Assembly (NCBI GenBank): GCA_964460485.1
Contig: CAYWRY010000003.1
Span: 1 to 63,882, forward strand
DNA: 63,882 nt
Direction: 5' to 3'
Origin: an uncultured Spirochaetales bacterium
Lineage (GTDB): Bacteria > Myxococcota_A > UBA9160 > UBA6930
In this document: positions 7,086 through 58,903 of the stretch, piece after piece
Numbering within the stretch: the stretch's first letter is position 1
Layout: each line of letters starts with the position of its first letter
The notes under the pieces: model-generated
Told to the model about the DNA's origin: nothing
The model's database searches: none
The model's input: the letters and a program-made list of their open reading frames with translations, nothing else
Made by a program: the position numbers and the translations under genes

Positions 7086-7137
7086 CTTTCGGCTGTCTAT
7101 CGCTCTCTCTGTATCGACGTTGCGCGTTCGAGATTGA
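7086..7137 (-). promoter_or_regulatory. Two tandem weaker sigma28-like promoters upstream of romR
   Basis: Minus strand: TCAA(7137-7134)-N15-GTCGATAC(7118-7111) and TACAG(7113-7109)-N15-GCCGAAAG(7093-7086). Confidence 0.5.
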
Positions 7138-7202
7138 ACGCCAAGTGCTTCGCGCGCCGGAAAATCTCGGGCAACCTAGCAGCAACTCGCTCGGGGCTGC
7201 GG

Positions 7203-7230
7203 TCAAGTCGGCCGGCGCGCGGCCCGATGA
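7203..7230 (+). promoter_or_regulatory. sigma28-type promoter upstream of the PP2C phosphatase
   Basis: TCAAG-N15-CCCGATGA, ending 35 nt before ATG 7266. Confidence 0.65.
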
Positions 7231-7265
7231 AGCTCGGCAGTGCGAGCGCGGGGGACGGAGCGGCG

Positions 7266-7991
7266 ATGATTCTCAGGGCGGCGGCCCGCAGCGACGTCGG
7301 CATGCGCCGGCGCGGCAACGAGGATCGTTTCGTGCTCGTGCCGGAGCACGGTTTCTATCTCGTCGCAGACGGCATGGGCGGCCACACCGCGGGGCAGATC
7401 GCGAGCCAGCTCGCGGCCGAGGCGTCGGCGCGTGCGATCGCGGCGCTCGAGGGAGCGAACGCGACCCCCGCCGAGAAGCTGCGCATGGTGGTCGCCGCGG
7501 CGAACCGCGCGATCTACCTGGCCGCGCAGCGCCAGCCGGAGTACGCGGGCATGGGGACCACGGTCGTGGCGGTGCTCGCCGCCGGCGAGCGAGCCGCCCT
7601 GGCGCACGTGGGCGACAGCCGCGCCTACCTGGTACGCAGGAACCGCATCCGGCAGCTCACCGACGACCACTCGATCGTGGGCGAGCTGCTGCGCCGCCAG
7701 GAGATCTCCCTCGACGCCGCCAAGGAGCATCCCCATCGCCACGTGCTGACGCGAGCGCTCGGCGTTCGCGAGAGCGTCGAGCCCGACCTCGCGGAGCTGA
7801 CGCCGGCGCCGGGCGACGTGTTCGTGCTGTGCTCCGACGGCCTCACGAATCACATCGAGGATCTCGAGCTCGCGAAGCTGGTGGCCGAGACGGCCGATCT
7901 TCAGGAGGCCTGCGACGACCTGGTGGACATCGCGAACGGCCGCGGCGGCGAGGACAACGTCACCGTCGTCCTCGCGCGCGTGGAGCGTTAG
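7266..7991 (+). CDS. PP2C/PrpC-family Ser/Thr protein phosphatase
   Basis: SDVGMRRRGNED, VADGMGGHTAG, GMGTT, AHVGDSRAY, LTDDHS, RHVLTRALG, LCSDGLTN, GGEDNVTVV; GGAG RBS before ATG 7266. Confidence 0.92.
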   Translation: MILRAAARSDVGMRRRGNEDRFVLVPEHGFYLVADGMGGHTAGQIASQLAAEASARAIAALEGANATPAEKLRMVVAAANRAIYLAAQRQPEYAGMGTTVVAVLAAGERAALAHVGDSRAYLVRRNRIRQLTDDHSIVGELLRRQEISLDAAKEHPHRHVLTRALGVRESVEPDLAELTPAPGDVFVLCSDGLTNHIEDLELAKLVAETADLQEACDDLVDIANGRGGEDNVTVVLARVER

Positions 7992-8143
7992 ACGAGCGCC
8001 CGGCTACCAGCGACACGCGCAACGCGCGAACGCGGCTCGAGAATCCGCAAGCCGACCAGCGCTGCGCAGCGGCGCAGTCGCCGCTCGGCGAGGAGAAGCG
8101 ACCACCGCTCCTGGGGCGGTTGCCGCCCAGCGCCGCGCGACGA

Positions 8144-8911
8144 TCAGGCGCGCTCGATCACCGACTTCAGCTTCGAGCGCAGGCGCAGCACGGACTTGGT
8201 GTGGATCTGGCACACGCGCGACTCGGTGATGCCGAGGATGTTCCCGATCTCTTTCATGTTGAGATCTTCGTAGTAGTAGAGCGAGATCACGAGCCGCTCC
8301 TTCTCGGGCAGGGTCGCGATCGTGTCGGCGACCACGCTGCGCATCTCCTGGAGCTTCAGCGACGCGAACGGGTTCTCGGCGTTCACGTCCTCGACCACGT
8401 CCGCGTAGCTGCCGCTGCGGTCGCCGTCCTGTCCGCCGCCGCGCAGCTCTTCGAGGTTCACCAGCGAGATGCCGCGCACCTGATTGATCAGCTCGTGGAA
8501 CTTGTCGAGCTGGAGGCCGAGCGAGTCCGCGACTTCCTCCTCGTTCGCGGAGCGGCCGAGGCGTTGCTCGACGTCTCCGTAGGCGCGCTCGAGGCGGCGC
8601 CCCTTCTGCCTCACGCTGCGCGGCACCCAGTCGAGGGAGCGGAGCTGGTCGAGGATGGCACCCTTGATGCGGAACTCGGCGTACGTCTTGAACTTGCAGT
8701 TCTTGTCGGGGTCGTACTTGTCGATCGCGTCCATCAGGCCGATCACGCCGGTGTTGTGCAGATCGTCGAGGTCGATGTGCGAGGGCAGGCGGACGGCGAT
8801 GCGATTCACGATGTACCGGATCAAGGGGGCGTGCTCGAGCACGATCCGCTCCTTGAGCGCGCCCGGGATCTCGCCGAACTTGTCTTTGGCCGTCTTGAGC
8901 TGCGCTTCCAT
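8144..8911 (-). CDS. fliA: FliA/WhiG-family (sigma28) RNA polymerase sigma factor
   Basis: LPSHIDLDDLHNTGVIGLMDAIDKYD, FKTYAEFRIKGAILDQLRSLDWVPRSVRQK, LPEKERLVISLYYYEDLNMKEIGNILGITESRVCQIH; ATG 8911 chosen, GTG 8926 is an alternative. Confidence 0.92.
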   Translation of the reverse strand: MEAQLKTAKDKFGEIPGALKERIVLEHAPLIRYIVNRIAVRLPSHIDLDDLHNTGVIGLMDAIDKYDPDKNCKFKTYAEFRIKGAILDQLRSLDWVPRSVRQKGRRLERAYGDVEQRLGRSANEEEVADSLGLQLDKFHELINQVRGISLVNLEELRGGGQDGDRSGSYADVVEDVNAENPFASLKLQEMRSVVADTIATLPEKERLVISLYYYEDLNMKEIGNILGITESRVCQIHTKSVLRLRSKLKSVIERA

Positions 8912-57351: not shown

Positions 57352-57387
57352 ATGAGCCGCCTCGCGCGCTGTCGCGCCGCAGCGGCC

Positions 57388-58755
57388 TCAGCTCCTGCCC
57401 AGCCCGTACTCCTTGAGCTTGTAGAGCAGGGCGCGGTGGGAGATCCCGAGTAGCCGCGCCGCGTGGGTGCGGTTGCCCTTGGCCGCCTCGAGAGCGTCGC
57501 GGATCCAGGCAGACTCGAAGCGCCGGCGCGCCGGCGCGAGGGACCAGTCGCCGCTGCGCGCGTGCGTCGAGCCGGCGTCCGCTCCTCCGCGCACGCTCTC
57601 GGGCAGCTCGCGCAGGCCGATGCGCTCGTCGTCGGCGAGGATCACCGCACGCTCGATCACGTTTTCCAGCTCGCGCACGTTGCCGGGCCACGCGTAGGCC
57701 ACCAGCTTCGCGAGCGCATCGTCGGCCACGCTGCGCACGTGCTTGCCGAGCGAGGCGCGAAAGCTCGCGAGGAAGTGGTCGACCAGCAGCGGGATGTCCT
57801 CGCGCCGCTCGCGCAGCGGGGGCACCGTCACGCGCATCACGTCGAGGCGGTAGAAAAGGTCCTCGCGAAAGCGCCCCTCGGCGACCTCGCGCACGAGGTC
57901 GCGCGCGGTGGCCGCGATCACGCGCACGTCCACCGTGCGCGGCTTCGACTCGCCGACCGGGCGCACCTCCTCCTCCTGGAGGACGCGGAGCAGCTTCACC
58001 TGGAGCGGGAGGGGGAGCTCGCCGACCTCGTCGAGGAACAGCGTTCCCCCATCGGCTTCCGTGAACAGGCCGCGCCGCGCGCGGTCGGCCCCCGTGAAGG
58101 CGCCCTTCGCGTGGCCGAACAGCTCGCTCTCCAGCAGCGCCTCGGGGATCGCGCCGCAGTTCACCGCCACGAACGCCTGATGGCGCCGGGCGGACTGCGC
58201 GTGCACGGCGCGGGCGAGCACTTCCTTGCCGGTGCCGCTCTCGCCGGTGAGCAGCACCGTCGTCTTGAACTCTGCCGCGCGCTCGATCAGCTCGAGCACC
58301 GCGACCATGTTCGGCGAGGCCGCCACGATCGGGCGCTCGCCCACCGCGCGCTCGAGCTCGCGCAGCAACAGGTCGTTGGCGCGGCGCAGCTTCTCGCGCT
58401 CCTGCGCCTTGCGGATCGCGAGCAGCGCCTCCGACGGAGGGAACGGCTTCGCGAGGTAGTCGTACGCGCCGCGCCGCAGCGCCTCGATCGCGAGATCGCG
58501 CGTGCCGTACGCGCTCATCAGGATCACGGTGAGACCCGGCGCGATGCGCAGGAGCTGGGGCAGCAGCTCGAGGCCGTCGACGCCGGGCATGCGCAGGTCG
58601 CAGAGCACGACGTCGAAGGGGGCGCGCTCGAGCTGAGCGAGCGCCTCGCTGCCTTGCGCTGCCGCCGTGACCTCGAGCCCCTCGCCGGCGAGGAACAGCT
58701 CGAGGCTCTCGCGCAGGGCGTCGTCGTCGTCCACGACCAGGATTCGCGTCGCCAC
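57388..58755 (-). CDS. sigma54-dependent response regulator (PilR2-like)
   Basis: [64 protein letters not shown]. Confidence 0.9.
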
Positions 58756-58774
58756 CGCCCCCCTCCGCGAGGCC

Positions 58775-58803
58775 CTATCGGCCGCCGCGGGGTCCCGCCT
58801 TGA
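58775..58803 (-). promoter_or_regulatory. sigma28-type promoter upstream of the PilR2-like gene
   Basis: Minus strand TCAAG-N16-GCCGATAG, 19 nt before GTG 58755. Confidence 0.7.
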
Positions 58804-58875
58804 CTCGCAGCCCCCGCGAAACGCCGCCGCAAGTGGCGTGTGATCTGCCGCACCTCGCGAATGCCGCTGCCTGCC

Positions 58876-58903
58876 TCAAGTCCGCGGAAGCGAAGGCCGA
58901 AAG
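58876..58903 (+). promoter_or_regulatory. sigma28-type promoter upstream of HTH-pilMNOPQ
   Basis: TCAAG-N15-GCCGAAAG, 50 nt before GTG 58954. Confidence 0.7.

Follow-up and report, generated by a model that had tools for sequence, protein, structure and literature searches.

Contig CAYWRY010000003.1 of assembly GCA_964460485.1, analysed here over a stretch of 63,882 nucleotides (the window), carries a sigma factor gene of the fliA/whiG family, a type IV pilus cluster and, in front of pilus genes, a romR-like gene and several regulator genes, copies of one bipartite motif of the promoter form T(C/A)AAG-N15-GCCGATA(A/C/G). On the whole, our analysis indicates that the FliA/WhiG sigma factor probably reads this motif, and does so in the middle of a cascade running from sigma54 to sigma28 and back to sigma54; we hold this sequence-based reading with some assurance. 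The window has a G+C content of 72% and probably comes from an uncultured member of the Myxococcota; to judge by the labels of related genomes, one of them the isolate UBA9160, it belongs to the Myxococcota_A class that takes its name from UBA9160 (preprint on that class).

A sigma28-type motif before pilus and regulator genes

The first-pass annotation of this DNA had listed seven copies of the motif, on the plus strand at 7203, 10725, 39604, 48476, 56380 and 58876 and on the minus strand at 58803. All seven were re-read and have the sequences quoted there, and the gene calls bear out that they are intergenic and correctly oriented, each lying 35-120 nt upstream of a gene on the same strand. 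A weaker copy reported before romR is also present, at 7138-7111 on the minus strand. The sites are given below, where EBP2 and EBP3 denote sigma54 activators (enhancer-binding proteins) and HTH a small helix-turn-helix gene.

7203..7230, plus strand: sigma28-type promoter of the PP2C phosphatase gene, 19.6 bits
7111..7138, minus strand: variant sigma28-like promoter of the romR-like gene, TCAAT-N14-GTCGATAC
10725..10752, plus strand: sigma28-type promoter of EBP2, 11.3 bits in the window
39604..39631, plus strand: sigma28-type promoter of pilB-pilT-pilC(-pilS), 17.2 bits
48476..48503, plus strand: sigma28-type promoter of the minor-pilin operon, 16.4 bits
56380..56407, plus strand: weaker sigma28-type site before the PEP-CTERM-like gene, 11.6 bits
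58775..58803, minus strand: sigma28-type promoter of EBP3, 19.3 bits
58876..58903, plus strand: sigma28-type promoter of HTH and pilM-N-O-P-Q, 22.2 bits

In the window the motif is enriched over dinucleotide shuffles, both by exact pattern and by position weight matrix (PWM). The exact pattern TCAAG-N16-CCGA has 8 matches where 0.46 are expected, and none of 100 dinucleotide shuffles reaches 8, the maximum being 3. To prevent circularity, the PWM was built without the window, from 27 sites upstream of pilM in other genomes; at a threshold of at least 16 bits it finds 5 matches on both strands of the window, against 0.2 expected and a maximum of 2 in 200 shuffles. The five best of about 128,000 positions are 58876, 7203, 58803 (minus), 39604 and 48476, all of them sites of the first-pass annotation, the weaker scores being those of 56380 and 10725. 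Across 1.19 Mb around fliA in 80 genomes, the PWM gives 95 matches at or above 16 bits, 76 of which precede PP2C, EBP2 or romR in the correct orientation. By comparison, the motif is missing from all of the roughly 15 housekeeping transcription units in the window, no related locus shows a match of at least 13 bits upstream of fliA, EBP1 or HK2, and a scan of 56200-59300 for sigma70-type consensus sequences found nothing.

In every comparison set the boxes are fixed and the spacers variable, and the conservation of the motif at orthologous positions in dozens of genomes with diverged spacers agrees with its earlier assignment to the sigma28 promoter class. Besides the details of the romR site, the analysis adds sites at 45200 in pilS, at 1139 (minus) in fusA and possibly at 9314 (minus), which are treated below. 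Two sorts of matches were set aside. A site of 13.2 bits at 56303-56331 (minus) runs antisense into pilY1, overlaps a G+C-rich terminator-like hairpin after the pilY1 stop codon and is probably fortuitous, and matches of the form TAAAG...GCCGATTG in four relatives were rejected as targets since they lie inside EF-G coding sequence.

Conservation of the sites in related genomes

Conservation upstream of pilB and pilM, which had been proposed as a check, is complete in the close relatives. The pattern T[AC]AAG-N15-GCCGATAA stands before pilB in all eight loci compared (the window, L109 and L163-L168), and five of the six pil loci fetched by means of PilC homologues (L163-L168) have TAAAG as a classical -35 box. 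For pilM, a metagenome scan with PilM yielded 31 loci with a PilM at least 62% identical and with upstream sequence, and TCAAGTC-N13-GCCGATA[CG] is found in 31 of 31, whereas it is absent from most loci with a PilM at most 57% identical. A second sublineage (L106, L113, L115, L117 and L119; PilM 55-65% identical) keeps the pilM promoter with the spacer TTTTCG and the -10 box GCCGATC, which suggests that the putative regulon is older than the core clade.

The other sites of the pilus cluster are also found in relatives, to varying extents. Sites related to that of the minor-pilin operon occur in L089, L121, L163, L165, L166 and L168, and none was seen in L164. The sole relative with a PEP-CTERM-like gene, L083, has TCAAG-N15-TCCGAAAA at -64. 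Before EBP3 the -10 box, of CCGATAA-like sequence, is kept in 14 of 14 relatives at -34 to -45, with a degenerate -35 box (TCACG/TCAGG).

Around fliA the comparison could be made with larger numbers. About 65 of 71 relatives have the PP2C promoter TCAAG-N15-NCCGAT, located between -50 and -110 and with divergent spacers, and about 60 of 63 have the romR variant, TCAAT-N14/15-G[AT]CGATA[ACG], located between -77 and -163. The EBP2 promoter is found in about 50 of 52 relatives, mostly with 16-21 bits and thus usually stronger than the window copy, and the antisense control gives 0% at 13 bits or more. The -10 box of EBP2 ends 7 nt before the ATG (10752-10763), so that its predicted transcript would be leaderless or nearly so; EBP3 would likewise be short-leadered, its site beginning 48 nt before the start codon.

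The sigma factor and its relatives

The sigma gene announced at 8144-8911 is borne out, on the minus strand:

8144..8911, minus strand: fliA/whiG-family sigma factor, 255 aa, TIGR02479

It begins with the ATG at 8911, in front of which stands a GGAGGA ribosome-binding site. The product scores 277.8 bits with TIGR02479 (FliA_WhiG) against a cutoff of 189.6, the SigB/F/G and RpoD families scoring far lower. Taking as group 3 the sigma factors of about 250 aa with regions 2, 3 and 4 and no region 1.1, it shows this architecture, with Sigma70_r2, r3 and r4 in its 255 aa. Among solved structures it comes nearest to Streptomyces WhiG (6PFV, 3.7e-71) and to E. coli FliA (6PMI, 6e-56), followed by Aquifex FliA (1RP3, 1.3e-37), with SigB and SigA at 1e-18 or weaker. 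Judged by these profile and structure matches, the gene product is a genuine member of the FliA/WhiG family.

Relatives of the sigma factor form more than 120 clusters at 83-98% identity, all from uncultured Myxococcota, and across the motif-carrying genomes the protein is 81-98% identical. A genome scan found 80 species-level metagenome-assembled genomes (MAGs) with the same fliA neighbourhood, including the isolate UBA9160 and three complete chromosomes, and the neighbours of fliA, namely the activators, PP2C and romR, are constant over the 80.

Many MAGs of this lineage (L003, L024, L028, L042, L047 and others) are deposited as 'uncultured Spirochaetales/Spirochaetaceae bacterium' despite their myxobacterial neighbourhood; these labels are probably a taxonomy-mapping error in the records. 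One genome, L001 (ENA contig_1914, 4.39 Mb), has fragmented gene calls around fliA, with the activators split and fliA called as 385 aa, which looks like indel errors of a long-read assembly, and its proteins need care.

Sigma54-type promoters and the proposed cascade

The motif is not the only predicted promoter in this region, as the following sites show.

8988..9004, minus strand: sigma54-type promoter of fliA, TTGGCATGGGCCGTGCT, directly downstream of EBP1
48510..48525, plus strand: sigma54-type promoter of the minor-pilin operon, GGGCAC-N5-TTGCT, just after the sigma28 site
52502..52517, plus strand: sigma54-type promoter before pilY1, GGGCAT-N5-TTGCT, intergenic, read from the window sequence

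In 80 of 81 related loci a near-consensus sigma54 sequence, TTGGCA[CT]-N5-[CG]TGCT, precedes fliA at a distance of 64-189 nt, and no sigma28 site stands close to the fliA start. A -24/-12 promoter before fliA, together with the adjacent enhancer-binding protein EBP1, would place sigma54 above sigma28. The minor-pilin promoter has its counterpart in L163-L168, where TGGCAC-N5-TTGCT is found at the matching place before the fimU-like gene. In addition, three activator genes (pilR, EBP2 and EBP3) stand behind sigma28-type promoters. The first-pass notion of one FliA-type regulon is therefore too simple: since fliA, the minor-pilin operon and pilY1 carry sigma54-type promoters, sigma54 control is, as far as promoter sequences tell, interleaved with sigma28 control and not replaced by it. 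In the minor-pilin operon the sigma28 and sigma54 sites are in tandem, a few bases apart; because the predicted sigma28 start falls inside the -24 element, the two promoters may compete.

The most economical reading of this arrangement is a cascade, whose steps past the presence of the promoters are inferred. A signal would phosphorylate EBP1, the candidate activator of the fliA promoter, and EBP1 with sigma54 would then transcribe fliA. Sigma28 would in turn transcribe the pilus motor, the alignment complex and secretin, romR and the activators PilR, EBP2 and EBP3. Finally, these three activators would turn on sigma54-dependent pilus genes, that is the minor pilins, pilY1 and presumably a pilA elsewhere in the genome.

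Sites inside genes

Some sites of the same type lie within coding sequence; the gene X1 is given with them.

45200..45227, plus strand: sigma28-type promoter within pilS, in its 3' part, about 270 nt before pilR and HK3
1112..1139, minus strand: probable sigma28-type promoter within fusA, at its 3' end, 14.8 bits, about 200 nt upstream of X1
9287..9314, minus strand: uncertain site in the 3' end of EBP1, an exact pattern match, about 380 nt upstream of fliA
3-932, minus strand: X1, a conserved protein of about 356 aa, probably helical-repeat, with no Pfam/NCBIfam family

The pilS site is present in seven of seven genomes, within a variable peptide PQxxxxxxR, and each time CAA and CGA are used, which are rare here (6% of Gln and 4% of Arg codons, respectively). 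It is likely that these codons are kept by an internal promoter for pilR and the downstream kinase.

X1 has no Pfam family even at E = 1. Where its orthologues stand away from fusA, the site is intergenic and scores 19-23.5 bits, and X1 appears as a strong sigma28 target in the distant relatives L047, L052, L058, L062 and L078. In the window the promoter of X1 probably lies within the codons for VPMAEM, an EF-G motif that is conserved universally. The -10 box of the fusA site includes a Glu codon, spelled GAA in 25 of 35 loci against a background of 19%, and GAA co-occurs with TCAAG (23/0 vs 2/10; Fisher 3.6e-7, uncorrected for phylogeny). The EBP1 site is kept only in a close subclade, with a varying -10 box (GAA/GAT/GAG), and could be an autoregulatory promoter of fliA.

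Alternative explanations

That the motif is a chance or compositional artefact of a genome with 72% G+C is hardly credible to us. Short AT-containing words do gather in the intergenic DNA of high-GC genomes, which speaks for such an effect, but no shuffle matches the observed count, the excess at 16 bits or more is as given above, and tens of genomes keep the orthologous positions with antisense controls near zero. That the motif has a different reader appears improbable; such a reader could be another group-3 sigma factor, paralogous to this one, or a regulator that binds DNA, for instance the HTH protein encoded upstream of pilM. In favour of this, the motif is tied to FliA by indirect evidence, the romR (TCAAT / GACGATA) and EBP3 (TCACG) sites deviate systematically from the consensus, and the HTH gene stays beside pilM even in lineages without the motif. 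This last observation argues against the HTH protein itself as the reader, as its gene persists where the motif is absent. Moreover, GCCGATAA with TAAAG/TCAAG, a fixed spacing and a free spacer sequence is the signature of sigma28 (consensus in PMC8325347), and the distance from the start codons, the strict orientation and the high identity of the sigma factor across motif-carrying genomes all fit a sigma28 promoter. Several points nonetheless weigh against the reading of the motif by FliA/WhiG within a cascade. This sigma factor is tied to the motif by the known specificity of its family, and the activation of fliA by EBP1 is predicted from their adjacency. The romR and EBP3 sites, being conserved departures from the consensus, are maybe weak promoters or read by another factor, and a second FliA paralogue elsewhere in the genome is possible. 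The spacer of TAAAG-N15-GCCGATAA is one base above the optimum of E. coli and B. subtilis. The related genomes are also linked by phylogeny, which makes the counts larger than the number of truly independent observations.

Whether this sigma28 has left flagella altogether or serves them as well is a separate matter, on which our confidence is lower. Among the window proteins scanned with Pfam/NCBIfam there are no flagellar, chemotaxis or FlgM genes, and the Pfam-annotated loci of relatives around fliA and the pil cluster contain no flagellar or chemotaxis family, whole genomes not having been searched in either case. Thus the neighbourhood of flagellar and chemotaxis genes and FlgM, a typical and non-defining trait of fliA, is missing in the window and in the annotated loci, and of the high-scoring sites in related sequence, about 2 Mb in all, none stands before a flagellar gene. 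One possible account, which we judge less likely than not, is co-regulation, with flagellar and chemotaxis genes elsewhere in the genome and one sigma28 driving both flagella and pili; the promoters would then be real and the first-pass wording 'instead of flagella' mistaken. In favour of this account, flagellar hierarchies typically have a fliA that depends on sigma54, pili and flagella are jointly driven by FliA in Actinoplanes and Bdellovibrio, and Anaeromyxobacter, a cultured myxobacterium, has a flagellar cluster of 55.7 kb which was argued to be ancestral (PMC2330069). On the other side, besides the negative results just given, fliA lies between sigma54 activators, PP2C and romR in 80 of 80 genomes, and flagellar genes are lacking in most cultured myxobacteria (PMC2330069). 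It is conceivable, and we propose it tentatively, as something short of an even chance, that the class has lost flagella entirely but still has the ancestral scheme of flagellar regulation, in which sigma54 and an NtrC-type activator are followed by sigma28 and this by more sigma54 activators, and that the entire scheme has been rewired to the type IVa pilus machine and the RomR polarity module.

Gene map of the window

Genes were called by a frame plot of G+C at third codon positions (GC3) together with Pfam/NCBIfam. The left part of the window holds fusA, coaX-birA-nadC, the romR-like gene, PP2C and the sigma factor gene; to the right of the latter are the divergent NtrC-type sigma54 activators EBP1 and EBP2, followed by kinase and receiver genes. 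About 25 kb of housekeeping and envelope genes then separate the EBP2 region from the type IV pilus cluster, which is ordered pilB-T-C-S-R, a further kinase, four minor pilins, an Ig-domain protein and pilY1, and continues with the PEP-CTERM-like gene, EBP3 (minus), the small HTH gene and pilM-N-O-P-Q.

5637-6956, minus strand: romR-like response regulator, Pfam receiver
7266-7991: PP2C phosphatase, Stp1-like, by Pfam/NCBIfam
9283..~10674 (start approximate), minus strand: EBP1, NtrC-type response regulator and sigma54 activator, Pfam Response_reg + Sigma54_activat + HTH_8
10763-12199: EBP2, then a histidine kinase (12332-13942) and a response regulator (13942-14307)
45482-46864: pilR; 46900-48405: HK3
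48551-49228: fimU-like gene of the minor-pilin operon, which continues with a pilV-like gene, pilW, pilX and the Ig-domain gene
52557-56246: pilY1
56443-57351: PEP-CTERM-like surface protein, its PEP-CTERM tail seen in the sequence
57388-58755, minus strand: EBP3, pilR2-like sigma54 activator
58936-59208: HTH gene; pilM-N-O-P-Q from 59218 to beyond 63882

The position of EBP1 directly upstream of fliA is syntenic across the relatives. The start of pilB is the TTG at 39722 (LNERIGELLV...), set by orthologues of 566 aa; the mechanical open reading frame begins at 39641. The pilB leader thus extends about 80 nt beyond the predicted transcription start. The romR-like protein has an N-terminal receiver, an acidic/Pro-rich linker and a conserved C-terminal helix, an architecture by which it is a putative RomR; NCBIfam has no RomR family model.

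Unlike in Myxococcus and Geobacter, no major pilin gene adjoins pilR in the window, and in six of six relatives examined the position beside pilR is held by a histidine kinase. A prepilin-motif scan of the window found only three of the minor pilins and no pilA; the same scan of all fetched loci found one pilA, in an outgroup locus, with a sigma54 promoter. Elsewhere in the window, a sigma54-type promoter CGGCAC-N5-TTGCT at 29643-29658 (minus) lies just before the gene of a small predicted membrane protein (~29294-29629, minus) of no known family.

Relation to known systems and biological meaning

In Myxococcus xanthus and Geobacter, PilS-PilR and sigma54 control pilA. The window resembles these in its pilB-T-C-S-R order and in having sigma54-type promoters on pilus genes, here the minor pilins and pilY1, and differs from them in lacking pilA beside pilR and in placing pilR behind a sigma28-type promoter; to our knowledge, sigma28 promoters on pilus machine operons have not been described for M. 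xanthus. In cyanobacteria the group-3 sigma factor SigF is needed for pilA1 and is concerned with pilus and motility genes, but it does not belong to FliA/WhiG and reads promoters of a type other than GCCGATAA. Sigma54 stands above sigma28 in the flagellar hierarchies of Vibrio (FlrA/FlrC) and Pseudomonas (FleQ/FleR). A hierarchy of the same order, under FleQ, is known from Legionella (PMC5655016). With these four-tier systems the window shares an NtrC-type activator and sigma54 above fliA, interleaved promoters and response-regulator activators within the cascade; however, its structural targets are type IV pilus genes, no flagellar gene is seen in the window or the loci, and its activators are not FleQ/FlrA orthologues by any test made.

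That a sigma factor of the sigma28 family can control type IV pili is known from Rubrobacter (WhiG), in a non-flagellar context and with mapped transcription starts, as well as from Actinoplanes, and the same control is predicted in the Jonesiaceae, the Cellulomonadaceae and other actinobacterial families (PMC8325347, PMC12871210). As in Rubrobacter, the FliA/WhiG sigma gene here is outside a flagellar cluster and TAAA...GCCGATAA promoters in the pilus cluster are predicted to drive several pil operons; the window sigma factor is also closest to WhiG among solved structures. The differences are the phylum, Myxococcota, the sigma54-dependent fliA and a target set that includes three sigma54 activators, a romR-like gene and PP2C, and further that promoters backed in Rubrobacter by mapped transcription starts are known here from sequence alone. 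No RsiG anti-sigma factor and no diguanylate cyclase or phosphodiesterase targets were seen in the window, to which no RsiG model was applied. The zoospores of Actinoplanes missouriensis and Bdellovibrio, where FliA controls Tad pili in the attack-phase regulon as shown by an E. coli reporter system (PMC5430801), likewise have a sigma28 regulon widened to pilus genes; both, however, are flagellated, with the same sigma driving flagellins, and the pili of Bdellovibrio are of the Tad (type IVb) kind, whereas the PilB/PilMNOPQ machine here is type IVa. The first-pass annotation knew of no description of such control in this lineage. Our search of the literature on FliA and pili in the Myxococcota also found nothing, and to this extent the claim stands, but sigma28 control of pili as such is already published for Rubrobacter, Actinoplanes and Bdellovibrio (Tad). 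The present case is set apart by its phylum, by a fliA that depends on sigma54, by targets that include activators and a romR-like gene, and by internal promoters kept through rare codons.

Knowledge of myxobacterial pilus regulation comes nearly solely from M. xanthus, and the transcription of the machine operons and of the polarity module is poorly defined. Against this background, the present analysis offers a conserved regulon, defined by sequence, in hundreds of uncultured species, in which the motor, the alignment complex, the secretin, the minor pilins and the romR-like gene would be under a flagellar-type sigma factor that is itself controlled by sigma54. The model is concrete and cheap to test by heterologous reporters, and it would make a second, independent case of sigma28 serving pili, after actinobacterial WhiG. 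If flagella are absent from these bacteria, they provide a case study of a regulatory hierarchy outliving its organelle; and if the hierarchy was indeed rewired whole onto the pilus, they would show, in present-day bacteria, an entire regulatory hierarchy handed over between motility organelles.

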